64,000 bases of DNA, taken from the UHGV virus genome UHGV-1376088. One strand, 5' to 3'. Position 1 is the stretch's first letter, and each line of letters opens with the position of its first letter. A program made the translations under genes and the position numbers. This DNA is from a virus. Shown in pieces: positions 2,979 to 61,714 of this stretch. Below the pieces are notes generated by a model. The model was given only the letters and a program-made list of their open reading frames with translations, was not told the origin of the DNA and searched no databases.

Positions 2979-3925
2979 TCTGGAATTACCTCTTTAGCAA
3001 TAAATTTATATCCGTCAATTAACTGGCCATCTGAGCCGATATCTACTGAATGTTCATACCCAACTATTCTACATTCTACAATAGATATTCGTTGTTGAAC
3101 ACCCTCTGTAACAGCATCAGAATTATTATAAACCATATGAATAGTAAAGCTACCAAGGTCCGCCCAGTCTAATACAGACTTAGCCGATACCTGCTCGTTT
3201 TGATATTCTTTCAATTGCTTTCTATATTTGGCTAGCTCTTCGGATGTTAATTGGATTTGCTCATATGGGCTTAGGATTTTAAACTCATTGGTTCTGCCGC
3301 GATAATGCGCAATAACTCTAGCCAGATAATCTTTTTCTGCCTTATTGATTCTAATAATACCGTTTGTTAAGACATTGCCTCTGGCTAAAAAATCGTATCT
3401 ACTATTACCAATAGTGTAAATTGGTGTACTTGTTAGAGTCTCATTTACAGCGATTCCGGCCGCTCTGTCTATTAGAATATCGCCAATGTATATATTGAAA
3501 TCACTAGAAGAGAAATACTTTGTATACAGCCCATCGTATGATGCAGTTTGTACTTTCTTATGAGCCAATGCTCTTTCTGCGTCTGTTTCTCCCGGATTAG
3601 GATTATATGGCCTAGCCCTACCCTTTGAAGAGATAGCCGACATATTATCAACGGGGTCAACTTTGCTTGAACTCTTTGGGACGCCTTTTGGTTTAAAGTC
3701 CGTAGAATTACTTCTAGAGTCTTTAATTTGCGGATACATCTTTTCAATAACTGTTTTATCCACAGTGATCGATTTGCCCGGCGCAAGTCTTTTGGCAAGA
3801 GAATATTCTAGACCTATATTATATTCTCTAGACTGATTCTCTACGACATTACCGTCTACAGATACGACAATACCATTATCGGTATTCTCTATATTATATT
3901 TTGATTTAGCCATTATTTCTTCCAA
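2975..3925 (-). CDS. 316-aa hypothetical tail-module protein
   Basis: ORF track; 4-nt overlap coupling with flanking genes in the tail operon. Confidence 0.55.
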   Translation of the reverse strand: MEEIMAKSKYNIENTDNGIVVSVDGNVVENQSREYNIGLEYSLAKRLAPGKSITVDKTVIEKMYPQIKDSRSNSTDFKPKGVPKSSSKVDPVDNMSAISSKGRARPYNPNPGETDAERALAHKKVQTASYDGLYTKYFSSSDFNIYIGDILIDRAAGIAVNETLTSTPIYTIGNSRYDFLARGNVLTNGIIRINKAEKDYLARVIAHYRGRTNEFKILSPYEQIQLTSEELAKYRKQLKEYQNEQVSAKSVLDWADLGSFTIHMVYNNSDAVTEGVQQRISIVECRIVGYEHSVDIGSDGQLIDGYKFIAKEVIPE

Positions 3926-41497: not shown

Positions 41498-42164
41498 CAA
41501 AACAAGCGGCTTGATAAATATAACCCGATCTAGCCATGTTGTATAACGTAGATGTCTTACTGATATAACTCTAATTGTAAGAGAGCTATATCCTAGGCTT
41601 TTTCTTTACCCATCTTGACCCTCCATGGAAACCACGGACCGTTAATACTTCCATTTGTAGTCATGCTATTTAGCATCATCTTGTAGCTCAATATGCTATC
41701 TCTACAAGACCAGAGATGTTTCATCTTCCCATGTGGCCGATTAGTATCGGTTACAATCCACTGCATAACAGGAAATTTATTTATACTCGCCACCTCTCGT
41801 ATTGCTTTGATATTTCAGGGAGTTTACGCTACTTCAACAACGAGTTTTCGATCGACTCCTTCGGTTAGGCTTGCCCACATCTAGGAGTTTCATTACTGCT
41901 TCGTCCGACCTCGCCTCTCGAGGTTATTTAGATTTTCATCTAAGACTAGTTCACAGTAAGATGATGTCTCTTGAAGGCCGGATGCCGTAGATTATCCCGA
42001 CTCAGCTTGTCCAGTCATCAACATCATGACCGTTATTATACGGATTTTTGACACAAATGTCAAGAACTATTTTAAAAATTTACATTCAAAAATTAGTATG
42101 GTGTACATATATTTTATATTTTTATAAGTGCTTGATTACAAACAGAATAAAGATTGTAAAAAAC

Positions 42165-50100: not shown

Positions 50101-50547
50101 AAGGCTTTCGAATTGATGTTCATCGAAGATTACGTAATGGCGTTTGAAATTGCCAAAGTCTTTGTTGAGCTGTTCGAAGAAGACAAACGTTCTCGTGGTC
50201 AGCAAGGCTACCGTTGGAATAAAACCAACGCAGTTCGTATGGCACACACTGCGACTTGGAAAAATGTACACTTCGATGTGTACACTAAGGATGTGTCTGA
50301 GATTTATAACACATCATTCTTCTTTGGCCTGGACGATGTAAAATCCGTCAACAATTTGCTTGACATGAATGGCAAATCACCATTCAGTTTTATCCTGAAG
50401 GCTTTGAGCCGCGAAGTCTTGGCACAGAAACTCGTTATCGCCGAGACCAAAGCCGCTGAAGCTGAAGCGTTGGCCAATGGTGAGACTGTTGAAGCTGAGT
50501 CTTATCATGAGGTTGTAGATATGGACGAAGCTATTGATATGCTGTAA
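47137..50547 (+). CDS. 1136-aa protein of unknown function carrying an NRDDADGD (DxDGD) motif; speculative RNA-polymerase-like or other metal-dependent enzyme
   Basis: Long ORF with good SD (AAAGGAAATTATTATG) and moderately optimal codon usage; no Walker A, polymerase A/B/C or Toprim motifs found by eye; motif MSNRDDADGDRLTLFW. Confidence 0.6.
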   Translation: MSTITFKTFTSTVNEKAAASYEAAKANFEHTANIKAGVHKVPGVEVVALSSSKAAAMKPEVVAIVKDGAAVAVKEVGSRLEALAWANAEVEAIVLNEVKETEMSYSFEVEGVPTMVQRVETVKAGKTPTKEELNNLKDWARTICKIKAGEALPIVGKVEINIRRPSKGSVRVVAQRGTLATSLVNSPLGRETIARHAFVSYKDGIVSVTESIETLIDWMAGINTEGVKLVDALKRKSGGVVVVKSEKPAPKGVKVQQGDLLNISPDTSWKLGMPVSDAMFISRKAPNSMVAVNHPQLAGKYISVYDVKKAIARGILNPDLDTKVSIGVRKVAVLLSVTNEAGDKVKSLADVKDHPLAMNFAGGACYGRKSLIQQYGKMRVVSFHHLKGVVTNVREIDALVDYLDVDIISPMLKSKAVGVTHAIMGGDLADFMLRLLEDESFRASANAAIAMNSKSVNVDGLVYEFAIIEEEIYVSDFYTLQGHRRVGSEITVNDKINGVEVEAPEQTLMNELLSELKGGNTTYSPVVRILEMKRAGLVEAVSHSAEGGVLLADQMIRQYGESLFKSFISGRTGKRTAKAVAAAKNVDWSCTANEFLAMTRTWYSDKFAVMFAGNGSLSVEQVKYTALVGDETSQYIMKQFLVNLFNGYGKFPGLLNMPRGFEIKAGDHSFVFPGSSFWDKPETITGDHVSGLQFTGGDFFKSLASIILMAKTRGTKTWEAAGVIKTHAKHLLAIEETFGSHKGLKFSLPKGRSLPVSYHFENGLKVITADRSYKEAAKRGEVGAIKFPILMENNFRLYETEVKTLMSFDSDAELELNRFICESVVFVDALSHMSNRDDADGDRLTLFWAKGYEGQEQWSEDKLLACNSAKQQLSYVEDELGSLNTKEINERSVQVWGKEDVQPAVEEIVAAKTGVGSETNNLITLTHLIRNKLGYSNMANLAIDAMGILLQKEVVENMKHSNGNVRFCEYLNLRNKETDLDCMSEAFEKAFELMFIEDYVMAFEIAKVFVELFEEDKRSRGQQGYRWNKTNAVRMAHTATWKNVHFDVYTKDVSEIYNTSFFFGLDDVKSVNNLLDMNGKSPFSFILKALSREVLAQKLVIAETKAAEAEALANGETVEAESYHEVVDMDEAIDML

Positions 50548-50630
50548 GACTCCGTACCCAATAAGAATTGGGCAAATGTTACTGCTCGCTGGATACGGCT
50601 CCGTAGCGATATGGGGCTGTATTCACGTGG

Positions 50631-50660
50631 AGCGGTTCTGGTGTCGGTTTCCCTGTGGAG
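50631..50660 (+). promoter_or_regulatory. reiterated GTGTCGGTT element, copy 1 (variant, followed by the CCCTGT-ggaga-ACAGGG hairpin)
   Basis: GGTGTCGGTTTCCCTGTGG, 65 nt upstream of the ATG at 50706. Confidence 0.5.
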
Positions 50661-50705
50661 ACAGGGTTTCCTGTCGTTTTCAATTTCTTTTCGGAGGCTC
50701 CGTTA

Positions 50706-51001
50706 TGCGAGAGTTCGCAATTGCCCCAAATTCGCCATTTGCACAGTTGTGTGCAGGTGACATGTATGACGCCGTAGTTCGCGACGTCAAGTTTGCAATG
50801 CCGGTTGGTGTTGAGACCAAAGAGTCTGACATTCCCGGCGGTTTTCGTACCGTTGAGACGGAAGATGGCAATGCTGTTTTCTGTTCAGCGGTACGTTTGT
50901 CTGATAAACCCGCTCCTGGGTTTGTCTCAGTTGCATTATGGTATGCTGAGTATTCTCGGCTGTACCATATGGCTCGTGTCAGTGAGGATCATCCTTTCTG
51001 A
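50706..51001 (+). CDS. 98-aa hypothetical early protein
   Basis: Internal ATG with GGAGG SD; the ORF-track N-terminal extension spans the regulatory element. Confidence 0.5.
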
Positions 51002-51015
51002 TACAATACAGGGAT

Positions 51016-51047
51016 CCGGCACATCTATTGTGTCGGTTCTTTTACGA
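51016..51047 (+). promoter_or_regulatory. reiterated element, copy 2 (hairpin CCGGCACA/TGTGTCGG plus TTCTTTTACGA)
   Basis: Seen directly; ATG 35 nt downstream. Confidence 0.6.
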
Positions 51048-51072
51048 TAATAATTTTTCAATGGAGGTTGTT

Positions 51073-51249
51073 ATGAAATACAAAGATTTTTTGATCCGAT
51101 ACACCCTGGAAGATGGTTCTCGCAAGGACCGCCTCGTATCTTATATCGTTCCTAAGGATCTGGACGACGTATATGAGTATGCCGAAAATGTGGCGTGCAT
51201 GGAAGATTTCGAGGTTGTTGATATTGAAGTTAAGGGATTGGAAGACTGA
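51073..51249 (+). CDS. 58-aa hypothetical protein
   Basis: GGAGG SD; trimmed from the ORF-track 51028 start. Confidence 0.5.
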   Translation: MKYKDFLIRYTLEDGSRKDRLVSYIVPKDLDDVYEYAENVACMEDFEVVDIEVKGLED

Positions 51250-51452
51250 TGGTGTCATTTGAATTCAAATTGGCCTACGGCTCTATTGACGAGCTTAGGG
51301 CCGATTTGGGAAATAATAAAGAGATTTCCATATGGAAGCACTTCTTGGATGTAATTGTAAGTCATTCAGAAGATGATGATATGGTTATCTTTGAGATTCA
51401 GGACGATAATTCTTTGAAATTTGCTAGATACGAAGAGTTTTCGTTTATCTGA
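51249..51452 (+). CDS. 67-aa acidic hypothetical protein
   Basis: ATGA overlap coupling. Confidence 0.5.
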   Translation: MVSFEFKLAYGSIDELRADLGNNKEISIWKHFLDVIVSHSEDDDMVIFEIQDDNSLKFARYEEFSFI

Positions 51453-51462
51453 ACAATGCAAG

Positions 51463-51497
51463 GACCGGCCCAGATTTTGGTGTCGGTTCTTTTATGG
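51463..51497 (+). promoter_or_regulatory. reiterated element, copy 3
   Basis: GGTGTCGGTTCTTTTATGG, followed by the GAGAAGAG-ttg-TTCTTCTC hairpin. Confidence 0.6.
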
Positions 51498-51550
51498 AAG
51501 AGAAGAGTTGTTCTTCTCAATTATAATTTTAATAGCTATGGAGGCTAAAA

Positions 51551-51897
51551 TGAAATACGTTCCAACTAAAAACTTGTCGCAAGTATGGTATAACCTTGCC
51601 GAGCGCAAAGAATTTGAAGCGGCTGCTGAAGAGGCAGCAAAAGAAGAGTTCTTAAAAGAACTGAAAGATGAAGACTATCGATCAGTTGACGACTATAAGT
51701 CCTATCTTGCAGCAGAGTTTAGTGATGGTGACATCGCCCACGATATGTACGAATTGCAAGATGAACGCGATGATGAACAAGTCTTAGCTGGGCATCCGGA
51801 CATTACACCGGAGCAAAGCTTTAATCGTCTTGTAGAGAGCTATGTCAAAGATCTGTATGTACAGGCCCATTGGCAAGTCTTAGAGTCTCTTAAATAA
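51551..51897 (+). CDS. 115-aa acidic hypothetical protein
   Basis: GGAGG SD; trimmed start. Confidence 0.5.
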
Positions 51898-52193
51898 CCT
51901 ACCAGCCGGCATCTGTAAAAGGATGTCGGTTATTTTATGACATATATGATTTCCCTGTAAGTTTTGCCGATACCTTGAATCTTGTTGCTCTTGGTATCGG
52001 TTTCTTTTTGGAAACATTTGAATCCTTTTACCTCCATAAACCTTTGGGCCACACTTGCTTTTTTATAGCGCAGTGTTGGCCCCCTTTTTTCCTCCCGCTG
52101 GACAGGTAGCAGGACATCAACGTGTTGCAACCACGCATATAAACCCGCTAAGACACCCACAGACTCCGTATTGAATATAGGCCACATAACATC

Positions 52194-52220
52194 AACGGTT
52201 TTGTGTCGGTGCTTTTATGA
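52194..52220 (+). promoter_or_regulatory. reiterated element, copy 4 (GTGTCGGTGCTTTTATGA, then TATAAATA)
   Basis: Seen directly; ATG 40 nt downstream. Confidence 0.55.
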
Positions 52221-52243
52221 TATAAATATTTGTGGAGTTTACC

Positions 52244-52561
52244 ATGAAGTATACCGTAAAGTTATTTGATAGCCATGGCAAAGAGACTGAATATGAGGTC
52301 TCTAGTCTTGACATCGAAACCATTAAGAAAGAGATTGGTTTCGGTGAAGAAGAAGTTGCTATGGCTAAAACTTATATAGATGGGAAGATTGTTTCTACTT
52401 TCCATCTTGGTCAGGATTGGCAATATTATGTAACATATGAATTTATTGATGGGTTGACAGACTCTGATGTAATCTATGTTGTAGAGGGCCAAAATCCTGT
52501 GGCAATCGCAAAACGTGATATGCCGTTCTTAGCCCACGATGTAGACGTTGAAATTCTGTAA
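52244..52561 (+). CDS. 105-aa hypothetical protein
   Basis: GGAG SD; ATG start rather than the upstream GTG. Confidence 0.5.
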   Translation: MKYTVKLFDSHGKETEYEVSSLDIETIKKEIGFGEEEVAMAKTYIDGKIVSTFHLGQDWQYYVTYEFIDGLTDSDVIYVVEGQNPVAIAKRDMPFLAHDVDVEIL

Positions 52562-52567
52562 CCTATG

Positions 52568-52600
52568 GGGCCGATGTGTTTGTGTCGGTCTTTTTACGAG
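52568..52600 (+). promoter_or_regulatory. reiterated element, copy 5, followed by the GGACA-tgt-TGTCC hairpin
   Basis: GTGTCGGTCTTTTTACGAGGGACATGTTGTCC. Confidence 0.6.
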
Positions 52601-52640
52601 GGACATGTTGTCCGAATCTAACCACAATGGAGTGTAAATC

Positions 52641-53000
52641 ATGAAAATCAAGATCGAATTTGCTAAAAAAGAAGTTAAAGCTTTGCAATCTGCGGCTCAG
52701 TCTTTCCGCGACCGTGAAGACGAGTTCAATGCAATGGTAGGTTTGCAAAATAGCCAGCCGGCAACCATCAACAAGAACACCGTTTACTGGGAGAAATCTC
52801 AGAACGAAGACGGCAATGTTGAAGTGTCCTTAGAAATCAACAAAGACTGGGCCGTTAAGGTTATCGATATTTGGACAGAAAACTTCAATGCCGTAATGAA
52901 CTTTGTGTTCGCGGTTACCCCAGCAATTGCATTGTTTGCAGGCCGCATGAAGAAATCTAGCTCTAAACTCAACTCTGTTGTAAAAGAGCTGGTTGAGTAA
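52641..53000 (+). CDS. 119-aa hypothetical protein
   Basis: ORF track; GGAG SD. Confidence 0.5.
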   Translation: MKIKIEFAKKEVKALQSAAQSFRDREDEFNAMVGLQNSQPATINKNTVYWEKSQNEDGNVEVSLEINKDWAVKVIDIWTENFNAVMNFVFAVTPAIALFAGRMKKSSSKLNSVVKELVE

Positions 53001-53011
53001 CGCCATAATGG

Positions 53012-53046
53012 CCGGCACCCCTTAAAGGTGTCGGTTATTTTACGAC
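53012..53046 (+). promoter_or_regulatory. reiterated element, copy 6 (hairpin CCGGCACC/GGTGTCGG plus TTATTTTACGAC)
   Basis: Seen directly. Confidence 0.6.
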
Positions 53047-53077
53047 AATATTTTAACAGCCTTTTATGGAGATAATC

Positions 53078-53374
53078 ATGGCTAAAAAGAACCCTTCTAT
53101 TAACCGCTTTTTGAAACAAATCAGACACTGGGCATACGGCAAGACCGTAGTGTTGAAATCCAGCGTTGGCAAGTTAGAAGCTGAATGGGTTGATATGTAT
53201 GAACATTCGTCCGACAAGAAAATGGACGAAAGTTTAAGCTCTCTGAGCTTCACTAAAATCTATGTTTGTGACACTTCTTTGCCTATGGGGCAGAATGTTA
53301 CAATCTATGAGCTTGAAGATGGAAAATATGTCCACAAGGGTACTACTTATGACCCTTACTTTGAGCTCGTTTAA
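53078..53374 (+). CDS. 98-aa hypothetical protein
   Basis: GGAG SD; trimmed start. Confidence 0.5.
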   Translation: MAKKNPSINRFLKQIRHWAYGKTVVLKSSVGKLEAEWVDMYEHSSDKKMDESLSSLSFTKIYVCDTSLPMGQNVTIYELEDGKYVHKGTTYDPYFELV

Positions 53375-53383
53375 ATAAAAGTT

Positions 53384-53421
53384 ACCGGCACCGATTAGTT
53401 TTGGTGTCGGTTCTTTTGTGG
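53384..53421 (+). promoter_or_regulatory. reiterated element, copy 7, followed by the AGGCA-tgt-TGCCT hairpin
   Basis: ACCGGCACC...GGTGTCGGTTCTTTTGTGGAAAGGCATGTTGCCT. Confidence 0.6.
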
Positions 53422-53450
53422 AAAGGCATGTTGCCTTGTTGGAGTCCAAA

Positions 53451-54443
53451 ATGGAAATCAAATCCCAAAAGCAGGCAAAGAAAGTCCTGCTTCAATTGCA
53501 AGGGGAGCTTCATAAGTTGGAGCTCCAATATCAGAAACTCAATGGCATTCATAAAAACGCCGTTGAAAAGAAAATTACAGAGACCGCCGCGCTTTGGATG
53601 TCGGTCTTGGGTGAAGCCACACATAAAGGCTTCGTGGAAAATAATGGTGTTACGGTCACCATCTCTGGAACCGAGCTCAAAAATCCAGAGAAAATTGGAC
53701 CAGTTACATTGTCTGTGTTTAAACGCGCAGAAGAGCTGTCCAAAACCGAACCGGGGCCTGAAATCGAAATCAAGCCCGAACCCCAATCTGAAACTTTAGC
53801 TAAAGGAAATATCATCATGACTCAAAATACTCAAACTATCGCTCAAATTATTGCCGGTGCAGAAGCAAAATTCGCAAATATCGACAAGTTCAATGTTGCC
53901 GTGGAGGACATTAAGTCCGAAATGTTGGCATTTGAGGGTGACGAAGTGACCCCAGAACTGTTGAAGAATGTGGGAGAATACCTCACCGCGCTGGTTAAAT
54001 ATAACCGAACCACTGACGCAACAGGTGTCTCCACACTGACCGCCGAAAAAGCAGCGTTGAATGAAGCTGCTAACCAGTTCTATGAGGGACTGGGTGAAGT
54101 AGACGAAGAAACGTCTGCGAAATTCAGCAAGTTGCTGTCCGATATCGTCAAAAATACTGACGAAGAAGACAAAGAGGGTTGGACCCATAAGATTTGGGTT
54201 GGTTGCAAAACTGGCGGCTCGTTCGTATTGGACTTGGCCAAAGGTTTGGTTATGTACATCTATGGCGGTGTAATCAAAATCCTTGGTACAGTTCGTGATA
54301 TTGCCGGCTATACCTTAGGTAAAATGCTGTCTATCTTGGACGCAGCAACTACTAAAGACTTTGGACGCAAGTCTAAAGAGGGTGTTATTATGCGTGCAAT
54401 GAAAGAACACGTAGAGGAAGCCAATGCAGCAGCGGCAGCCTGA
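53451..54443 (+). CDS. 330-aa hypothetical protein (coiled-coil N-terminus)
   Basis: GGAG SD 6 nt upstream of the ATG at 53451; the ORF-track extension lacks an SD. Confidence 0.5.
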   Translation: MEIKSQKQAKKVLLQLQGELHKLELQYQKLNGIHKNAVEKKITETAALWMSVLGEATHKGFVENNGVTVTISGTELKNPEKIGPVTLSVFKRAEELSKTEPGPEIEIKPEPQSETLAKGNIIMTQNTQTIAQIIAGAEAKFANIDKFNVAVEDIKSEMLAFEGDEVTPELLKNVGEYLTALVKYNRTTDATGVSTLTAEKAALNEAANQFYEGLGEVDEETSAKFSKLLSDIVKNTDEEDKEGWTHKIWVGCKTGGSFVLDLAKGLVMYIYGGVIKILGTVRDIAGYTLGKMLSILDAATTKDFGRKSKEGVIMRAMKEHVEEANAAAAA

Positions 54444-54723
54444 TAAAATCTACTGTGACGCTCGGTTCGTGGGCGGTAATCGATGGGCTATTGGTTACTG
54501 CTCACTAAATATGGGTGTCAATGGATATAAAATAATTAAGGCTTCTGACAATAATGTAGCCGAACTGGAAGCAATTCGCTTTGCTAAGCAATCTAATCCA
54601 GGTTCTATTATATTGTCTGATAGTCTTAATAGTGTAACTGCGCTTAATGACCCTAGTGTAGCTTACATTGAACGTTCACTTAACTTTGCAGACTCATATT
54701 TGCGAAATGTCCGAGTGAAATAA
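54424..54723 (+). CDS. 99-aa truncated RNase H-like protein
   Basis: IYCDARFVGGNRWAIGY, NNVAELEAIRFA and IILSDSLNSV align with RNase HI catalytic D-E-D blocks; the C-terminal His/Asp region is absent; 20-nt overlap with the upstream gene. Confidence 0.55.
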   Translation: MQQRQPDKIYCDARFVGGNRWAIGYCSLNMGVNGYKIIKASDNNVAELEAIRFAKQSNPGSIILSDSLNSVTALNDPSVAYIERSLNFADSYLRNVRVK

Positions 54724-54726
54724 CGG

Positions 54727-54769
54727 ACACCGGCGCGGCAGAAATTGTCGTGTCGGTGTTTTTATGAGG
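54727..54769 (+). promoter_or_regulatory. reiterated element, copy 8 (hairpin ACACCGGC/GTCGGTGT plus TTTTTATGAGGG)
   Basis: Seen directly; ~110 nt upstream of the 459-aa gene. Confidence 0.6.
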
Positions 54770-54861
54770 GATAGAGCCAACCTCAATAAAAAACAGCTCT
54801 ACGGTCTGAATCTTGACCAAAAGAATCTCAATTTTCAATCAACCTTAAAAGGAAAAATATC

Positions 54862-56241
54862 ATGACTATGAATCAAATCGAAACTGGCAACCTGAACACC
54901 GGCCGTAGCAAATTCCACAGCGTTTCTGGCCAAGTTGCAACTCCAATGGCATCAAGCCGCCGCACCTTTTACGTCTTGGACGCTCGTCCAGATGAAGCAG
55001 AAGCATTGGGCTATCGTGTATTCGTGTACAAACTGATGCATATGATTGCAAATGCCCCTATGTCTCGCGGTAATGGCCGTGCTTGCTGGGTAGCTACCAA
55101 TGCCGACGATGGTGTGCAATACACTGAAGGTATGACTACGAACCAAATCGTAGCAGCCGTCCGTAATGCAAATGCCAATGCAATGGAATTCTTGGACGCT
55201 GGTTTCAACGGTCTGAGCATCCAAAACGGCAAATTGGCACACTTCCCGGTACCAGTAGGTCCAGCATTTGGTCCAGAATGGTATGAGAAAGCAAACGGTT
55301 TGGCACTGAAAGCTCTGAGTCTGTCTAAAGGCTACGAAGCTTTGTTGTCTGGCTCTGCGTTCATCAGCCACGACAAGAACATTGTTACCGCCAACGAAAA
55401 AGACGGCGAGCGTGTTCAGTTCACCGAACAACAGCTGGCCGAAATGATGGCCAAGATTGTAGGTGCATACAAAGCCGAAATCAAACGCCTCGTTGACGCA
55501 GGTGCAATCGCCACTTCGACTGCTATCTATGTTGGTGCAAACGGCCTGAGCCCTTGTATTGTCCCAATTGCAGCAGCCAGCTACAAAGTAAATAGCAACG
55601 GCAAGCAAATTGACGTCCGTACTACACCTCGTGCATACGGCCGTGTCTCTCCAAACTTCTGTCTGACTATTACTGGTCAAGCCGAAATCACCACTTTGGA
55701 GCAAGACGAATTGCATGAAGGCTATTTGGCTGGTGTCCAAGTGACTGAGGGTAACAATCCTACCCAATACTGCCGCAAGTTCGTGAACTTCAAGGACAGC
55801 CGTGGCAACGATATTACTGTACGTGCAGTAATGTACAGCAACGGTAATAACGGCCGTGGACAAACCCGCGCCGAAGCCTTTGAAAATGTCAGCACCAACG
55901 CCGATGAAATCATGTTCACCGAGAACAATGTGTTAGGCTTTGAAAGCCGCACTCCTCGTGAAGACGATGAAACCGGTCAACCATGGGTAGTTACAGCACG
56001 TGTAACCATGGACGGTTATATTGTTAGCCGTAACGAAGCAGGTAGCACTGCTGTTGTTGCAGACATTGACGTTGACGCACTCGATGTAGACGGTCTGGAC
56101 TTGGGCGACGTGGACATCTTCGCAGATACTGCTAAAGTAGAAGCTGAGAAACCTGCTGCAGCCAAAGAAACCAAACGCACTCGTCGTGGTCAAGCTCAAC
56201 AAGCTCCGGCTAACGAAGAGAGCGACGATACTCCGTTCTAA
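54862..56241 (+). CDS. 459-aa highly codon-optimized protein of unknown function (acidic C-terminal tail)
   Basis: ORF track; AAGGA SD; E. coli-optimal codons throughout; followed by a strong terminator. Confidence 0.65.
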   Translation: MTMNQIETGNLNTGRSKFHSVSGQVATPMASSRRTFYVLDARPDEAEALGYRVFVYKLMHMIANAPMSRGNGRACWVATNADDGVQYTEGMTTNQIVAAVRNANANAMEFLDAGFNGLSIQNGKLAHFPVPVGPAFGPEWYEKANGLALKALSLSKGYEALLSGSAFISHDKNIVTANEKDGERVQFTEQQLAEMMAKIVGAYKAEIKRLVDAGAIATSTAIYVGANGLSPCIVPIAAASYKVNSNGKQIDVRTTPRAYGRVSPNFCLTITGQAEITTLEQDELHEGYLAGVQVTEGNNPTQYCRKFVNFKDSRGNDITVRAVMYSNGNNGRGQTRAEAFENVSTNADEIMFTENNVLGFESRTPREDDETGQPWVVTARVTMDGYIVSRNEAGSTAVVADIDVDALDVDGLDLGDVDIFADTAKVEAEKPAAAKETKRTRRGQAQQAPANEESDDTPF

Positions 56242-56296
56242 TAGAGCCAGATACGGGCGAGCGTAAGCGAGCCCCTATTTGAAGTCCACTTGAATG

Positions 56297-56330
56297 CTGG
56301 TGTGCATGTATTTGTGCACCAGTATTTTTT
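56297..56330 (+). terminator. rho-independent terminator after the 459-aa gene
   Basis: CTGGTGTGCA-tgtatt-TGTGCACCAG (10 bp, two G:U pairs) plus TATTTTTTG. Confidence 0.7.
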
Positions 56331-56341
56331 GTCTTTTATGA

Positions 56342-56377
56342 CTGGTTGACGTGTTGTGTCGGTCCCTTTTTATAGGG
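56342..56377 (+). promoter_or_regulatory. reiterated element, copy 9 (no ORF downstream)
   Basis: GTGTCGGTCCCTTTTTATAGGG; the TGACTGGTTGAC direct repeat is present at 56340 and 56396. Confidence 0.5.
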
Positions 56378-56480
56378 ATTTAGCTTTCAAATGATTGACT
56401 GGTTGACTGTGTTTTTGATGTGTATACGGACATACAATATAGACGGGCGCGGCTATCTTTGTGCTGGATAACAGCCCAAA

Positions 56481-56510
56481 CAGCTATAATAGTGTCGGTT
56501 ATACTACGGT
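56481..56510 (+). promoter_or_regulatory. reiterated element, copy 10 (TATAAT-AGTGTCGGTTATACTACGGT; no ORF downstream)
   Basis: Seen directly. Confidence 0.5.
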
Positions 56511-56535
56511 ACGTGTAATATATTAATGAACAGCT

Positions 56536-56920
56536 TAAAACGTTTTATATGGCTAAGGGAGCAACCTTATCTAAGTTGTTGATTTATATAGATACAGGAT
56601 ATTCGTTCAAAAGTAAACAATAGGCTAAAATTAAGCCTAAAATAGAGGTATCTAGCGCCGCAGAAAGGCTAATATAGGCAAGAATCATAGCAATAGAGCT
56701 TATATAATAGATAGTATAAGCTAAAATAGGTCTATAATGGACATATAGGCATATAATAGAGGCATGTAATATATTAATAATAGGCCCAGATGTGCTTTAT
56801 ATTCCTTGGGAGCATTTTATACTAAGTCCTTGATTTATATAGAGGCAAGATATTTGTTCAGGAATGAACAATAGGCTAAAATATGGTCCGATTTAAGCAA
56901 AAATATACAATATAACCGTA
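56536..56920 (+). repeat. two ~75%-identical direct repeats of about 120 bp (56536-56660 and 56795-56920) in an A-rich, ATAGG/TATAG word-rich, iteron-like tract
   Basis: Both copies share GGGAGCA...TAAGT..TTGATTTATATAGA..GATATT..GTTCA..AACAATAGGCTAAAAT. Confidence 0.6.
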
Positions 56921-56995
56921 AAAATAGGTCATTTTGCATGAAAAGTGGCTTCAAATGAGAATAATTCCTAAAGTATCATTTTCTCCTATAGCGGA

Positions 56996-57030
56996 TACCG
57001 ACCTCTGAAAAGTGTCGGTTATTTTACGGT
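56996..57030 (+). promoter_or_regulatory. reiterated element, copy 11 (hairpin ACCGAC/GTCGGT plus TATTTTACGGT; no ORF downstream)
   Basis: Followed by the direct repeat GTCAATATAGACAG (x2) and the palindromic GGACGGGCGCGTCC. Confidence 0.55.
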
Positions 57031-57100
57031 GAATATAGTCTAAGCAGTCAATATAGACAGTAATAGACGGTCAATATAGACAGGACGGGCGCGTCCTTGT

Positions 57101-57250
57101 ATTGATTAAAAGCATAAATAACACCAATAAAACCACCAATACAAACATCACAAGCACAAACAATAATACTACTACAATAGGTAATACAATACATACTATA
57201 TACAAGTATAGCAGGTATAATAAGCACAAATCCAATGCAACTATATAGGC
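57101..57250 (+). repeat. A/C-rich (about 80% A+C) low-complexity tract
   Basis: aaaccaccaatacaaacatcacaagcacaaacaataatactactacaatagg... Confidence 0.6.
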
Positions 57251-57529
57251 TAAGGTGTATCTATATGTGCATAAGATACGGGCTGTAGTCCAGGTACCGC
57301 AGACTATATTAAGTGCATTCATCTATTATTGTCTCTATTGGTCAAATCTTAGAGACAAGGGTTTGATGGACTGGACTTCCAGGTAATTTAGCCTATATTG
57401 TTGTAATACGGTCCGTATTTTAGGTAATGCAGTCTATATTAAAATGTCTAGACCTGTAAACAAGTGTCCAGACGTATATTTGGTTTATATAAGTGCAAAC
57501 CTATAAATAGGTGTCTAAGTTCTTATTAA

Positions 57530-57900
57530 TAGTTATATCTGTATTAGAGTCTATATTGGTACTTATGTATTTGTGTGCATAAGTTCTTATATGTTCTTTA
57601 TGCTTCTATTGGTATATTTGTTTTTTATTGTATTGGATTCTATTCTATTTTTATTTTATATGGGAGTGTATTTGTATTTATGGTTGAGTCTATTTTGTTT
57701 TGGTTTGTTGTTTATTTTTTAGTTGTTATATTCTTTATGTTTGTATTTGCTTTTAAGGATTGTTCTGATGAATGAATATGGTTGGGTTGTTGCTTTTGTT
57801 GTTTGTATTTTGTTTATTATTGCTTTTATGGATGTTTGATTTTTGCATCTATCTTTGTTTTTGAAGTTTTTTATTTTGGTTATTTTGGCCAATAAAAGAA
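57530..57900 (+). repeat. C-depleted T/G-rich (about 80% T+G) 370-nt tract
   Basis: ttgttttttattgtattggattctattctatttttattttatatgggagtgtatttgtatttatggttgag...; about 300 nt downstream of the A/C-rich tract on the same strand. Confidence 0.6.
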
Positions 57901-57905
57901 TAATG

Positions 57906-57930
57906 GGCCCGGCGGGCCTTGTTTTATGTT
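57906..57930 (+). terminator. rho-independent terminator closing the noncoding locus
   Basis: GGCCC-ggc-GGGCC plus TTGTTTTATGTT. Confidence 0.6.
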
Positions 57931-57961
57931 GCACTAACCGTTTTTAAGCCCCTATGAAAAA

Positions 57962-57987
57962 TCGATTTAGTGTCGGTTTTTCTATGG
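57962..57987 (+). promoter_or_regulatory. reiterated element, copy 12
   Basis: AGTGTCGGTTTTTCTATGG; ATG of the 113-aa gene 33 nt downstream. Confidence 0.55.
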
Positions 57988-58010
57988 TAAATATTATATA
58001 GGGAGTTATC

Positions 58011-58352
58011 ATGATTTCTATGATATTGTTTGGCTCTGCTATTACTTCTTTAGCTATATTGTCTATTCTTGCTAAGAGTAATGTAGACCTTTTATATAAG
58101 GTTTTGGGTTATGAAGCCTATGTAGATCTTTGTTTTTCCTTGATTATTGGTTTTGCTTGTGGTATTAGTGGTACTATGTCCGGCTTTGTTATCGGCGCGG
58201 CGACCGGTCTTATCTTTGGTACTTGCCTGTTCCTTCTGAAGAAGATGATCGGCTATAAAAAGTATGAAAATAAGACTTGGGTTTACTATCCTGCTAAGTG
58301 GCCTATTGGTGATTTATTCAAAAATATGTATTCTAAGTATGAATACATCTAA
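58011..58352 (+). CDS. 113-aa integral membrane protein (2-3 TM helices)
   Basis: GGGAG SD; hydrophobic segments. Confidence 0.55.
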   Translation: MISMILFGSAITSLAILSILAKSNVDLLYKVLGYEAYVDLCFSLIIGFACGISGTMSGFVIGAATGLIFGTCLFLLKKMIGYKKYENKTWVYYPAKWPIGDLFKNMYSKYEYI

Positions 58353-58468
58353 ATGGCTATTTATTAAAGCCTTATTACGCAGGCATTATTATTTATGTCA
58401 TTTTTGCTATTACGATTCTTGTTTGAATAGCTAAAATTGATCATTATAGTTATTTTGGAGTTACATTT

Positions 58469-58744
58469 ATGGGCTTTTTAAAATCTCGTTTTAATCTTAT
58501 TGCGGCGCGTCTGTTCTACAATAAACAGGGGCGTCTTTCAATATTTAAGGTTTGTGCTGTATTAGGCATCTCTGCTGTCTGCTTTGTGTATAATGCAACA
58601 TTTGCATCCCTTGTAACAGGATTAGTGGTATTGATCGGATGTGTCTGGGTTATTACTCCTGTAGTAACATCTCTGTTTCCTAGTTTTGGAGACGAAGAGT
58701 GTGAAGTAATTGAATCCGAAACTGTTGATCCTTACACCAACTAG
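58469..58744 (+). CDS. 91-aa membrane protein
   Basis: ORF track; two hydrophobic helices. Confidence 0.5.
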   Translation: MGFLKSRFNLIAARLFYNKQGRLSIFKVCAVLGISAVCFVYNATFASLVTGLVVLIGCVWVITPVVTSLFPSFGDEECEVIESETVDPYTN

Positions 58745-58755
58745 GGAGGTTCCAA

Positions 58756-59238
58756 ATGGTTCCTTTGAATCTGTTTTCTACCTTGTTTAATCCCTCTTTA
58801 GAGTCCCTTGATTGGGACTCTGATTTAGGGAAAGAATGTATTTCTGCTGCTGAAGACTTTATTGATCAATTAGCTAATGCGGATTCTATTCGATCTCTTC
58901 GTGGCGATCCTATTTTTGATTCTATGATGGAATATGCTTCTAAGAATTATGACGCAAAAACCCTTTATGGTAATCTTAATTGGTTCTTAACGGATCTTGA
59001 GCAGAACCTCGCAATTCCATTGCACATTGACAGAATAAGTGATAATAAGGGTGATCCATACATCCGATATACATTTATGTCTGTCAAAATGCCGTATGTT
59101 ATTTCCTGGGTGCGTAATTTTCATGATCGACTGTATGTTAGTATTCATACCCCTAAGTTTATTAGTGGTGTAGAGATGAACATTTGTCGCAATGGTGAAA
59201 TCATAAAGGAAGAGCCATATGCTGGGATTCTTGTTTGA
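58756..59238 (+). CDS. 160-aa hypothetical protein
   Basis: ORF track; GGAGG SD (CTAGGGAGGTTCCAAATG). Confidence 0.55.
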   Translation: MVPLNLFSTLFNPSLESLDWDSDLGKECISAAEDFIDQLANADSIRSLRGDPIFDSMMEYASKNYDAKTLYGNLNWFLTDLEQNLAIPLHIDRISDNKGDPYIRYTFMSVKMPYVISWVRNFHDRLYVSIHTPKFISGVEMNICRNGEIIKEEPYAGILV

Positions 59239-59395
59239 CCTTGTAAAAATGGCAGCGTTCTTGCCTGTATTATTAGTTGGCGCGGTATGCTTCATGTTTT
59301 ATTTGGTAGCTGTTTGCATCTTTACGTTACCTGTTATTGCGGCATATTTAGTGCAAAGGTTATTTGCCGGCTGTATTAATGCTTTAAAGGCTTAG
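59219..59395 (+). CDS. 58-aa hydrophobic peptide (2 TM)
   Basis: AAGGAAGAG SD; overlaps the end of the 160-aa gene out of frame; not in the ORF track (below 60 aa). Confidence 0.4.
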   Translation: MLGFLFDLVKMAAFLPVLLVGAVCFMFYLVAVCIFTLPVIAAYLVQRLFAGCINALKA

Positions 59396-59406
59396 AAAGG
59401 CTTATC

Positions 59407-59685
59407 ATGTTCGTATTCGGAAGCGTATGGGACTACTTCGTTTATAACGCCATCACAAATCATTCTACAGGAATCTTATATATTATCTTCCTTGCAGTAT
59501 ATATAGGATTTATCCTTGCAAATTTAAATAAATACGTCTTTAAAATCAAGTATCTGCGTAAATTGGAAAGAAGCGGGCCGTTTCATGTTTTGCTGTTCTT
59601 CATTTCTGTTTTATTAGCTCACTTTGCAACTATTTACACAGGAAAGACCGTAGTTTATTTAATAGAAAAATTCCAGCTTTACTGA
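59407..59685 (+). CDS. 92-aa membrane protein
   Basis: ORF track; hydrophobic helices. Confidence 0.5.
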   Translation: MFVFGSVWDYFVYNAITNHSTGILYIIFLAVYIGFILANLNKYVFKIKYLRKLERSGPFHVLLFFISVLLAHFATIYTGKTVVYLIEKFQLY

Positions 59686-59700
59686 AAGCTTTGCATTTTG
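59675..59700 (+). terminator. rho-independent terminator
   Basis: AGCTTT-actg-AAAGCT plus TTGCATTTTG. Confidence 0.5.
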
Positions 59701-59701
59701 G

Positions 59702-59736
59702 AAAACCGATATTATAAAGTGTCGGTTTTCTTTTGG
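59702..59736 (+). promoter_or_regulatory. reiterated element, copy 13 (perfect hairpin AAAACCGA/TCGGTTTT plus CTTTTGG)
   Basis: Seen directly, immediately after a separate terminator. Confidence 0.6.
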
Positions 59737-59764
59737 ATGTTTTAATGTTTATGAAAGGTAAACA

Positions 59765-60202
59765 GTGGATACTAAGATTTTTGATTATGGCGAGTATTAT
59801 TATATCGTAAAGTATAAGCTCCAAACTGGAGAGATTCGCTATGCTATGTTTAAAGAAGATGCGCCAGAAGAATATTGCCTCGAATTAATTACAGATATCA
59901 GCGGACCTATTGAATCTTTTGAATTTATTTATGTTGAAGATACCCTCAAAGATCTTCCCCCTGATAATTATGAAGACGGTTGTGATATTGCGGATATCTT
60001 TGTTGTCGAAGCAATTAATAATGGCATCAAAGAGGGTGCCATAGTGAGTTTCGGCGAATATGAAGGCTCTCGTAAATTCTATAAAGTGTATCTGAAAGGC
60101 GAATTGCCAGATACGGACGAGAAGTTAACGGTCGTTAACCTTGAAGAGTGGCATAAAGCGCATCTCGAATGGCTTGACAGCTTTAATCCTACGTATCGAT
60201 AA
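59765..60202 (+). CDS. 145-aa acidic hypothetical protein
   Basis: ORF track (GTG start). Confidence 0.5.
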   Translation: MDTKIFDYGEYYYIVKYKLQTGEIRYAMFKEDAPEEYCLELITDISGPIESFEFIYVEDTLKDLPPDNYEDGCDIADIFVVEAINNGIKEGAIVSFGEYEGSRKFYKVYLKGELPDTDEKLTVVNLEEWHKAHLEWLDSFNPTYR

Positions 60203-60382
60203 ATATATCTGACGCCCTTTAGATAGGGTGTCTGTATATTAATGGAGCAATAAGAGCTCCTTCCTAGTATGATTCGACGCTAGACGTTGAATGGAGCCAA
60301 TGATTTAGTCACAAAGGCTAGTAGCTGAAATGCTATTTCTGACTTGGGATGACGACCCGCCCCTGTGAATGTGTCTGACTCT

Positions 60383-60418
60383 TGCCTGCGGAGTATAAAC
60401 GCAGGCATCCTATTTTAT
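60383..60418 (+). terminator. rho-independent terminator
   Basis: TGCCTGCG-gagtataaa-CGCAGGCA plus TCCTATTTTAT. Confidence 0.65.
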
Positions 60419-60431
60419 CACGAGGTTCAAT

Positions 60432-60686
60432 ATGACCAGTATCGATATTGTTTTTATATATATTATAATCTTAATTGCAGTTTATATTTTTGGAGCTACA
60501 TTTATTGTACGTTCATACCCTTCAAATTCTATGAATTTAGAAGAAGAACATCGCATTAAGATTTTAGACTCTCAATTAGATATGCTATTAATTGTGGCTT
60601 CGGCCTGGCCTGTAGCATTGGTAATTGTCCCTATTTATTTTATTATTAAAGGCTTAAAATCTGTAATTTACAGACTAATACGCTAA
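60432..60686 (+). CDS. 84-aa membrane protein (2 TM)
   Basis: ORF track; SD-like GAGG upstream. Confidence 0.5.
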   Translation: MTSIDIVFIYIIILIAVYIFGATFIVRSYPSNSMNLEEEHRIKILDSQLDMLLIVASAWPVALVIVPIYFIIKGLKSVIYRLIR

Positions 60687-60714
60687 TTGTTGATCAAAAG
60701 AAAGGTACTTTATA

Positions 60715-61158
60715 GTGAAACCGTTTAATCATGAAGAGGCCTTAAAGGGCAAATTGTGCAAGACCGCCGGCGGAGATTTGGCAATTGTATACGGAGATAC
60801 ATTAAACTCTCCGTATCTCAAAAATAAACCATATAGAGTTTTAATTGGAGTTGTTATTAACCGTACTGGCCATATTATTACAACCTCATGGAAATTAGAT
60901 GGTTCGTTTGGTATGGACCCATCAAATAATGATATTTTGGGAATCCTTGAAGATCATGAAGTAAGGGCGATTGAAAACTTGCAATTGTTAGAAAATGCAA
61001 TGCGGGACAATAAATATGTCCAATGGTATGAATCCGGCATTAATGGTCCAATTGCGGTAGAAAAGAAACTTGAAAATGGCAATTTCATTTTGGGTTTTGG
61101 CAAATGGAAATATGAAACCAATGGCGGAGGTTTGATAAATCTTCATATTGTAAAATAA
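60715..61158 (+). CDS. 147-aa hypothetical protein
   Basis: ORF track; AAAGG SD. Confidence 0.5.
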   Translation: MKPFNHEEALKGKLCKTAGGDLAIVYGDTLNSPYLKNKPYRVLIGVVINRTGHIITTSWKLDGSFGMDPSNNDILGILEDHEVRAIENLQLLENAMRDNKYVQWYESGINGPIAVEKKLENGNFILGFGKWKYETNGGGLINLHIVK

Positions 61159-61167
61159 ACAAAAGAT

Positions 61168-61195
61168 AAGTGTCGGCAAATTGTCGGTAAAATAG
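61168..61195 (+). promoter_or_regulatory. degenerate copy 14 of the reiterated element (GTGTCGGCAAATTGTCGGTAAAATAG)
   Basis: Seen directly; weaker match. Confidence 0.3.
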
Positions 61196-61210: not shown

Positions 61211-61714
61211 ATGCAATTAAAAAACAATATGCGTTATACTGATAATATGGTAACGTTCTTTACCGGCGGTGCACCGTTTAGCAATTTTTACTTTAGCCCA
61301 CTTGTGTATAAAGGCTACAATGTAAAGACTGCTGAGCAGGCATTTATGATTGAAAAAGCTATTACATTTGGTGATGAAAGCAAAATTCTGCCTATTGTTC
61401 AGGCTAGATCAGCGGCAGAAGCCAAAAAAGTGGGCCGGGCGGTACGAAATTTCGATCCTAAAGTGTGGGACGAAAAACGTTATGGAGTTATGGTTGATAT
61501 TCTGAAAATCAAATTCCAAAATCCTACATTGAAAGAAATTCTTTTGAGAACCGATAATCTTGAACTGGTTGAAGGCTCTCCATATGATGCAATTTGGGGC
61601 GTCAAATTGGACTGGTTGAGTGATGAAATTCTTGACCGTAACAATTGGCGCGGCCGCAATCTTCTTGGTAAGGCACTCATGGAAGTAAGAGAGTATTACC
61701 GTAATCAAATCTAA
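61211..61714 (+). CDS. NADAR-domain (YbiA-like) protein, candidate ADP-ribose-removing anti-defence enzyme
   Basis: FFTGGAPFSNFY...TAEQAFMIEKA...SAAEAKKVGR...W...KF.QNP.L...LL.T....LVEGSPYDAIWG...G.N.LG.ALMEVRE aligns block by block with E. coli YbiA/NADAR. Confidence 0.7.
   Translation: MQLKNNMRYTDNMVTFFTGGAPFSNFYFSPLVYKGYNVKTAEQAFMIEKAITFGDESKILPIVQARSAAEAKKVGRAVRNFDPKVWDEKRYGVMVDILKIKFQNPTLKEILLRTDNLELVEGSPYDAIWGVKLDWLSDEILDRNNWRGRNLLGKALMEVREYYRNQI

Follow-up and report, generated by a model that had tools for sequence, protein, structure and literature searches.

An 18-nucleotide motif arrayed behind a candidate two-barrel RNA polymerase gene in human-associated phages: a possible phage-specific promoter fused to terminator hairpins

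The stretch analyzed here, a 64,000-nucleotide (nt) window of the virus genome UHGV-1376088, corresponds to bases 32001–96000 of ENA ERZ28662767 scaffold_15 (186,050 bp) and derives from an uncultivated, human-associated phage of ~186 kb. It contains, on the + strand, a gene for an 1136-residue protein that we consider a candidate single-subunit two-barrel RNA polymerase, and 3' of this gene nearly every small gene is preceded, on one strand only, by an 18-nt signal, GTGTCGGTy-N-TTTT-r-YGR, which we number from its first G (position 1). With two further copies beyond the window end (window-equivalent positions 64528 and 64692), the array totals ~18 copies within ~14 kb; no further copy occurs in the ~9 kb after the 64692 copy, and a scan of the window finds none in the 46 kb of leftward structural genes, an absence already seen in a prior, sequence-only reading of this stretch. 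The polymerase-like gene and the sites of the array are as follows.

47137–50547, + strand: 1136-residue open reading frame (ORF), candidate single-subunit two-barrel RNA polymerase; the array begins 94 nt past its stop codon.
50641–50658, + strand: motif copy 1, GTGTCGGTTTCCCTGTGG, without a motif-based hairpin; 64 nt before ATG 50705; orthologues conserved, with variable genes downstream.
51030–51047, + strand: motif copy 2, 3' arm of a hairpin at 51016–51036; 43 nt before ATG 51073.
51480–51497, + strand: motif copy 3, with a hairpin, then a small hairpin at 51500–51518; 70 nt before ATG 51550.
51923–51940, + strand: motif copy ATGTCGGTTATTTTATGA, hairpin at 51904–51931; no ORF downstream; conserved in all relatives.
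51994–52011, + strand: GTATCGGTT plus T-run in a terminator-like hairpin (~51966–52002) without the GTGTCGG core, probably the plain terminator of a short non-coding transcript; relative L063 has GTGTCGGTC at this position.
52203–52220, + strand: motif copy without a convincing hairpin; 41 nt before ATG 52244; conserved although the downstream gene cassette differs among relatives.
52582–52599, + strand: motif copy with a hairpin, then GGACAtgtTGTCC at 52601–52613; 59 nt before ATG 52641.
53028–53045, + strand: motif copy with a hairpin; 50 nt before ATG 53078.
53404–53421, + strand: motif copy with a hairpin at 53384–53411, then AGGCAtgtTGCCT at 53421–53433; 47 nt before ATG 53451.
54750–54767, + strand: motif copy, hairpin of -25.9 kcal/mol, the strongest; 112 nt before the ATG of a 459-residue gene.
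56356–56373, + strand: core copy GTGTCGGTC without YGR at positions 16–18, after a strong terminator (56292–56327); ORF-free zone.
56492–56509, + strand: motif copy ATACTACGG, no hairpin and a broken T-run; ORF-free zone.
57012–57029, + strand: motif copy with a short hairpin; ORF-free zone.
57970–57987, + strand: motif copy after a GC-rich terminator (57905–57919); 41 nt before ATG 58011, the first of a five-gene unit; in L065–L067 the orthologous motif is intact and the hairpin missing.
59719–59736, + strand: motif copy with a shifted-register hairpin (AAAACCGA/TCGGTTTT); 46 nt before GTG 59765.
61170–61187, + strand: degenerate copy GTGTCGGCAAATTGTCGG, without T-run and without hairpin; 41 nt before ATG 61211.

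Within the window, GTGTCGGTT at ≤1 mismatch yields 21 matches against 6.9 expected, with nine exact matches, every one on the + strand from 50641 to 59719. The pattern GTGTCGG-N8-YGR yields 13 matches against 0.19 expected (at most one in 100 shuffles), which lie from 50641 to 61187 solely on the + strand and solely between genes. Each copy is found 4 to 15 nt 3' of the preceding stop codon and, on the gene map, 41 to 112 nt separate the motif start from a Shine–Dalgarno-supported start codon; the copies that lack a downstream start codon fall in two ORF-free stretches. The sequence-only reading had listed 14 sites, and all of these coordinates proved correct, as did their placement on the + strand between genes and that of 56356, 56492, and 57012 in an ORF-free zone. 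It missed the true copy at 51923, its site at 56356 carries the core and lacks the YGR, and the short spacing to start codons that it had put at 33 to 110 nt stands with the range corrected as above.

To describe the element position by position, we used 107 non-identical instances from the window and 13 related loci, in whose selection positions 16 to 18 played no part. Of the 107, 100 have T or C at position 16 (T 86, C 14), 94 have G at position 17, and 96 have a purine at position 18; outside the selected core, T11 to T14 and an A-rich stretch at +20 to +22 are also conserved. A U-tract would not account for a Y-G-R at a fixed eight nt past the core. In L055 and L033, loci of the ~172-kb relatives with GTGTCGG, the T-run is sometimes broken (cccttgTGG, cttcatTGG, and catcatTGG) while TGG stays fixed at positions 16 to 18, and the 3' part is therefore more than a U-tract. 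In orthologue alignments the motif sits exactly at the boundary of conserved and swapped blocks, where it is kept with the upstream block at 50641 and 52203 and with the downstream block at 57970.

Whether the motif is genome-wide or class-restricted, a point raised by the sequence-only reading, was addressed by an IMG/VR-wide scan with the strict pattern, which matched five near-complete ~180-kb relatives solely within this same, single region; the latter holds. That reading had also named a common REP-like (repetitive extragenic palindromic) element of the host chromosome as an alternative. A scan of 185,579 bacterial and archaeal genomes gave, among the matches listed, only single scattered ones in unrelated taxa and no clustered REP-like family, and a host REP-like or mobile intergenic repeat was rejected on this ground. 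Two other candidates were rejected: a leaderless mini-ORF starting at A15-T16-G17, since ACG variants occur and the ORFs have merely 2 to 10 codons, and a nick, packaging, or recombination site, which would not hold a fixed start-codon distance or intergenic confinement. In the literature we found no paper describing the motif or the protein family, and the motif string matched unrelated primers only.

No significant sequence, profile, or whole-fold similarity to a known two-barrel member was found for the 1136-residue protein. The protein has no match in Pfam, PHROGs, or the PDB sequences, its five distant homologues have none in Pfam or PHROGs, and profile (hidden Markov model) searches of the PDB gave no match. 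An HHalign comparison with SPbeta YonO returned a probability of 0.1 (not significant), unfiltered hmmsearch against SPbeta YonO and Escherichia coli RpoB/RpoC was likewise not significant, and Foldseek against the PDB gave no match at E ≤ 0.001. Homologues at least 71% identical are all annotated “hypothetical protein” and lie on 170–188-kb contigs; the family comprises 81 clusters from many human microbiome samples, many of them on contigs of about 180 kb. An exhaustive HMMER scan added the five distant homologues, which have 1,015 to 1,581 residues and 19 to 36% identity. Only ~35 positions are invariant across all homologues, and these form four collinear signatures, given here with their counterparts in the E. 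coli beta and beta' subunits or in YonO.

Signature a, beta-like: G376-x2-R379-x2-S382-x-H-H-x-K387-G-V, then V-D-I-I-x-P-x-x-K413-S-K; counterpart, beta GDKMAGRHGNKGV...VDIVLNPLGVPSRM.
Signature b, upstream part of the beta'-like region: I-K786-F-P788-I-L-M; counterparts, beta' NRAPTLH and YonO RSPHLF.
Signature c, beta'-like metal-binding loop: N-(R/Q)-D-D838-(A/F)-D840-G841-D842-R; counterpart, beta' NADFDGD.
Signature d, bridge-helix-like: A-K912-x3-G916-x2-T919-N-x-L922-(I/V); counterpart, beta' bridge helix ALKTANSGYLTRRLV.

At the motif level, GKMRVVSFHHLKGV..VDIISPMLKSK lines up with E. coli beta GDKMAGRHGNKGV..VDIVLNPLGVPSRM, IKFPILM..NRDDADGD with E. coli beta' NRAPTLH..NADFDGD, and AAKTGVGSETNNLI with the E. 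coli beta' bridge helix ALKTANSGYLTRRLV. D838-x-D840-G841-D842, within N(R/Q)DD(A/F)DGDR, is invariant in all homologues, down to 19 to 30% identity, and two clades have DDFDGD in the metal-binding loop; K-x-P-x-L-M sits 50 residues upstream of DxDGD, as in beta' (RAPTLH) and YonO (RSPHLF). The invariant DxDGD loop points to a putative double-psi beta-barrel A (DPBB-A) at motif level only, the predicted local distance difference test score (pLDDT) of the AlphaFold2 (AF2) model being <50 across the region. A second, beta-like DPBB signature lies N-terminal of DPBB-A and the bridge-helix-like signature follows; known single-subunit two-barrel polymerases have the same order of beta-like barrel, beta'-like barrel, and bridge helix (PMC10770324). 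A first AF2 model from a shallow alignment was unusable (pLDDT 38.9), and the model built with the distant homologues is confident for residues ~320–490 only; listed beside it are Pol I RPA135 (6.5), Pol IV/V subunit 2 (6.4), a designed DPBB (6.1), and plastid beta (6.1), with vaccinia rpo132, RDR2, the AR9 and phiKZ non-virion polymerases, and QDE-1 lower in the same list. From the signatures and their order, we infer that the 1136-residue protein may represent a new single-subunit two-barrel RNA polymerase.

Across four clades, the motif is inherited together with the polymerase-like gene and varies with it. In clade A, to which the window phage belongs, the first copy lies 94 nt past the stop codon of the gene, and the core is GTGTCGG, as it is in clades B and D. 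In clade B (protein 36% identical, ~170-kb contigs), eight loci have 5 to 13 copies each of nTGTCGG-N8-TGR on the strand of the gene only, the loosest first copy, GTGTCGGAT, lying ~175 nt past the stop codon; among the loci listed, the pattern occurs neither on the opposite strand nor in the 10 kb upstream. In clade C (protein 30% identical), four loci have 8 to 13 copies each on the + strand only, the first 70 nt past the stop codon, and the core is GTGTCGA, with correspondingly changed 5' arms (TCGGCAC, TCGACAC) and the consensus GTGTCGAtTttTTtTTGA. The clade D protein, from short contigs of another sample, is 31% identical over the C-terminal half (residues 500–1118), and three GTGTCGG copies, all lacking both hairpin and T-run, are grouped in a 150-nt stretch 290 to 440 nt past the gene and on the same strand. 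No opposite-strand copy was found in 19 loci from three clades.

Homologue P0084 is absent from IMG/VR, and the contigs of P0086 and P0087 are too short to judge or without the motif. For P0087, 23% identical and the most distant of the homologues, the contig of 7.8 kb contains no GTGTCGG. That contig (L206, Logan ERR3345675) has AGTTGAGATATATA twice, in the intergenic stretches 3711–3915 and 7304–7640, which may be a different cognate motif. As a separate observation, the ~80 nt from the stop codon of the polymerase-like gene to the first copy (window 50560–50640; ctcgctggatacggctccgtag..atatggggctg..cacgtg) are conserved even in L055 and L033 and may form a structured 3' untranslated region or a regulatory site.

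In 11 of the 16 window sites, the motif folds as the 3' arm of a hairpin, so that a G+C-rich hairpin and T-run lie 3' of the preceding gene as in an intrinsic terminator; this bears out the sequence-only description of a 3' arm with a varying 5' arm. The 3' arm consists of the first 9 nt of the motif, and a hairpin occurs in about two-thirds of copies (minimum free energy [MFE] ≤ -9 kcal/mol in 67%, 53%, and 95% of copies in clades A, B, and C, respectively). Over the 107 instances, the mean MFE is -12.8 kcal/mol in the sense RNA, against -6.7 with a shuffled upstream arm and -7.3 on the opposite strand. This asymmetry arises because a G faces T2, T4, and T8 in 31, 53, and 32 cases, respectively, pairing as G.U in RNA and giving a C.A mismatch on the other strand; the form in which the structure acts is therefore the sense RNA, not a DNA cruciform. 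The 5' arm shows drift, with A in some copies and G in others, loops have 4 to 12 nt, the stem register is not constant (for example at 59719), and at position 9 of the 54750 copy a compensatory exchange of C..G to T..A is seen between relatives; the 3' arm never adopts equally structure-neutral transitions. Two constraints are therefore overlaid, on pairing in the sense RNA and on the sequence of the 18-nt element. In an intrinsic terminator structure is conserved over sequence, whereas here near-invariance is seen in the 3' arm and at G17 and the 5' arm varies through wobble pairs, and the element is therefore not solely a terminator, in agreement with the earlier claim that a plain terminator would not explain it.

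The hairpin is dispensable for conservation of the motif: the copies at 50641, 52203, and 56492 and the L065–L067 orthologues of 57970 are conserved yet hairpin-less. Conversely, strong terminators without the motif share the region. Two of the three separate canonical terminators that the sequence-only reading had placed before motif copies were recovered (listed below), whereas the third (59675–59700) is a weak AT-rich 6-bp stem that the scan did not flag. The small hairpins that it had described downstream of three copies are present, 51500–51518 being flagged by the scan and 52601–52613 and 53421–53433 visible in the sequence. Terminator-like sites are enriched (39 versus 14 expected), whereas sigma70-like matches are not (41 versus 46 expected) and none falls in the intergenic regions of the array. 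A sigma70 promoter with TAYGRT as its -10 was ruled out on that ground and also because its -35 would fall in the unconserved loop. The terminators and the larger ORF-free zone are as follows.

56292–56327, + strand: independent canonical terminator, 15-bp stem plus T-run after the 459-residue gene, without the motif.
57905–57919, + strand: independent GC-rich terminator-like hairpin without the motif, its structure conserved in relatives.
56400–57960, no strand: ORF-free AT-rich zone with iteron-like repeats, embedded in the array.

We lean toward the element being a compact phage-specific promoter for the adjacent candidate two-barrel polymerase, recruited in addition as the 3' half of intrinsic terminators. 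Among the explanations offered by the sequence-only reading, the best-supported one is a module that combines terminator and promoter and is read by a polymerase of the phage; a candidate polymerase gene lies immediately upstream of the array. In the model we propose, GTGTCGGTy (positions 1 to 9) would be the specificity element, nTTTTrY (positions 10 to 16) an A/T-rich melting segment, and G17 the +1, with a pyrimidine at -1, purines at +1 and +2, and an A-rich initial transcript; the reader of the element would be the polymerase-like protein encoded directly upstream (47137–50547). Because the upstream half of such a promoter is G+C-rich and a T-run follows, evolution could repeatedly have added a complementary 5' arm upstream of that half, and in the read-through RNA of the preceding gene the same 18 nt would form the 3' half of an intrinsic terminator, with the predicted hairpins ending transcription. 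Each small gene or short operon in the ~14 kb would then have a module that stops the previous unit and starts the next within ~70 to 100 nt of intergenic DNA. The small 5'-proximal hairpins at 51500, 52601, and 53421 might stabilize the new transcripts, and the preference for G opposite T4 and T2 would avoid an antisense GTGTCGG.

Such a promoter–terminator would explain why the 3' arm is fixed and the 5' arm free, why wobble pairs occur, and why loops and registers vary; it would also explain the presence of promoter-only copies, which have nothing to terminate, and of motif-free terminators. The lack of host-type promoters, the leaders of 25 to 54 nt (one of 96 nt), and the start of the array directly after the polymerase gene would follow as well. 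More tentatively, these ~170–187-kb microbiome phages may encode an unrecognized family of two-barrel polymerases of ~1,000 to 1,600 residues, with a bifunctional GTGTCGG-N8-YGR element and a co-evolved GTGTCGG/GTGTCGA specificity.

Several points weigh against the promoter reading. The adjacency of gene and array is a correlation and no proof of use, and the putative start at G17 is inferred purely from the conservation of Y-G-R. Past the array, an 1147-residue gene and, at L208 14949–19557, an rIIA-like gene (HATPase_c, 669 residues), rIIB, and a YadA-like gene all lack the motif; at least two promoter classes must therefore serve the rightward genes, and the absence of the motif from the polymerase-like gene and the rII-type genes calls for other classes, none of which was identified. 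Inspection for other polymerases and sigma factors covered 64 kb of the 186-kb genome. In clade C, moreover, hairpin and T-run occur in 95% of copies and make a textbook terminator by themselves, and in P23-45 the virion polymerase has a conserved 26-nt motif at seven terminators (PMC10770324).

The last two points favor what we regard as the main rival, an unlikely one in our judgment, in which the element is a sequence-specific terminator or pause signal only, for the phage or the host polymerase, and the genes are expressed by partial read-through from one upstream promoter. It fits with a hairpin and T-run in 53 to 95% of copies, with the compensatory changes, and with copies that follow stop codons by 4 to 15 nt. 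However, it does not accommodate the conserved hairpin-less copies or clade D, where hairpin and T-run are both lacking, nor the copies that come directly after independent strong terminators and just before operons; it leaves the invariant G17 unexplained, and the downstream genes would go unexpressed, since each gene is followed by a terminator and neither another promoter-like motif nor a sigma70 match is present.

Distinctly less probable is an RNA-level site (3' arm/UUUU/AYG) for a phage RNA-binding protein or nuclease that would act in processing, antitermination, or stabilization. Selection for structure in the sense RNA through G.U pairs is what such a site would predict, and the hairpins at 51500–51518, 52601–52613, and 53421–53433 could be protective 5' ends after cleavage; yet the core is kept in hairpin-less and clade D copies, no nuclease or RNA-binding candidate was identified, and such a site would leave unexplained why in four clades the array begins strictly after the polymerase-like gene and why no other promoter is present. 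We give a similarly low probability to a promoter or operator for a modified host RNA polymerase, in which a sigma-like factor or an activator of the phage, comparable to T4 MotA or phiEco32 gp36, would bind GTGTCGG. The ORFs scanned, from 64 kb of the 186-kb genome, include no sigma factor or activator candidate, a coverage that itself leaves room for this view, but the array is tied to the polymerase-like gene in four clades and its core changes with the clade of the protein. The sequence evidence for a promoter otherwise serves a modified host polymerase equally, and the layout, with no -35 and with the core ~10 to 16 nt ahead of the putative start, would suit a -10-type element. An N4-type promoter, in which a virion polymerase recognizes an extruded DNA cruciform or hairpin and which the sequence-only reading had offered as an analogy, is highly improbable: as in N4 early promoters, the inverted repeats lie upstream of the putative start (ending ~8 nt before it) and a phage-specific polymerase is envisaged, but the loops are of 4 to 12 nt rather than 3 nt, the stem register varies between copies, the G.U stems become C.A mismatches on the template strand, where N4 has its stem (-7.3 versus -12.8 kcal/mol), the hairpin, which in N4 is present in every promoter, is missing from several conserved copies and all clade D copies, and the candidate polymerase is two-barrel (beta/beta'-like), not T7-like.

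The proposed promoter can be set beside known systems. In phiKZ, the non-virion polymerase initiates at the G of T(-3)ATG(+1) (PMC4666361), and P23-45 has two single-subunit two-barrel polymerases, each with its own conserved promoter motif (PMC10770324). The element resembles both in being a phage-specific motif that abuts a start site, here a putative one, without -35/-10 architecture; most copies have TATG or TACG ending at G17, as in phiKZ (PMC4666361), and, as in P23-45 (PMC10770324), the motif class does not extend beyond a single block of genes close to the polymerase gene. It differs in that its GTGTCGG specificity part is unrelated in sequence and is fused to a terminator hairpin, and the candidate polymerase, known from sequence alone, has no detectable sequence or profile similarity to those enzymes.

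T7-type promoters are contiguous sequences of ~18 to 23 nt in which a specificity region comes first, an A/T-rich segment for melting follows, and transcription starts at a G, and in T7 the first class II promoters come directly after polymerase gene 1. The element would share this layout, the array likewise starts after the polymerase-like gene, and copies beside an AT-rich non-coding zone recall the primary origin of T7 (phi1.1A/B). The T7 polymerase, however, is a Pol-I-like single-subunit enzyme, whereas the candidate here is of the beta/beta' two-barrel type, and T7 promoters are not halves of terminator hairpins. With intrinsic terminators the element shares a G+C-rich stem, a loop of 4 to 12 nt, a T-run just past stop codons, and compensatory or wobble substitutions; unlike them, it has a 3' arm and a YGR at fixed offset that are sequence-conserved across clades while 5' arm, loop, and presence of a hairpin vary, one-third of copies are hairpin-less, and motif-free terminators coexist with it. 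Arbiol, Comeau and Krisch reportedly described in 2010 the PeSL (phage early stem-loop) cassettes of T4-type phages, which are similar in placing a repeated promoter plus stem-loop module before many small early genes, in a plastic region and at cassette junctions. PeSLs bear host sigma70-type early promoters, whereas no sigma70-like signal is seen here, and their stem-loop follows the promoter, whereas here it overlaps the putative promoter core.

Phage-specific promoters for phage polymerases are already known; what is new is the motif, its systematic fusion with terminator hairpins, and the divergent, unannotated polymerase-like family. If the promoter reading is correct, this family would be a new and very divergent branch of the single-polypeptide RNA polymerase relatives (YonO, crAss gp66, P23-45 gp64/gp96, and QDE-1), and the likely promoter of the enzyme would be in hand together with a natural specificity variant (G7 to A, clade C). 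Promoter recognition by a minimal two-barrel polymerase would become directly testable and might offer an orthogonal transcription system, and it would be explained how common uncultivated human-microbiome phages express a large set of orphan early genes that have no host-type promoters. The design would be an economical one, in which a single 18-nt sequence is a promoter on DNA and half a terminator in RNA, and the transcription units of the whole phage group could be annotated from sequence alone.

Several observations concern the surroundings of the array. The ORF-free zone at 56400–57960 spans 1.5 kb at a GC content of ~0.35, contains three motif copies, and has GTCAATATAGACAG twice, GCAGTCTATATT-type repeats four times, and a 75-nt repeat twice, with an A/C-rich arm opposite a T/G-rich arm; assembly L211 breaks here, and the zone may be a transcription-primed replication origin or a genome terminus. 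The 459-residue ORF to its left (54862–56241, + strand) has no family match, a tblastn search with the protein gave no match, and its end, ...EESDDTPF, resembles the acidic C-terminal tip of bacterial single-stranded-DNA-binding protein. This gene has the longest leader (96 nt, partly conserved), and a mini-ORF from the ATG of the motif upstream of it ends in ATGA, overlapping its start codon. The ORF-less stretch at 51940–52200, which starts at the 51923 copy, is conserved in relatives and has terminator-like hairpins at ~51966–52002 and ~52050–52095; one or two small non-coding RNAs may be encoded there. Also within the array, 61211–61714 (+ strand) encodes a NADAR-domain protein.

Finally, the phage is novel at the DNA level, as a search for near-identical DNA among 50,697 phage records gave no match; its large terminase shares 41% identity with the enzyme of the Acinetobacter jumbo phage vB_AbaM_ME3. 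Between the leftward structural genes and the replication genes, the window contains a HOLDH RNA, full-length, at 41663–42027 (- strand), where Rfam model RF02997 scores 376.7 bits (gathering score 319.4). HOLDH is, to our knowledge, a large orphan structured RNA seen solely in metagenomes, and its presence in the window makes this phage clade a natural carrier.

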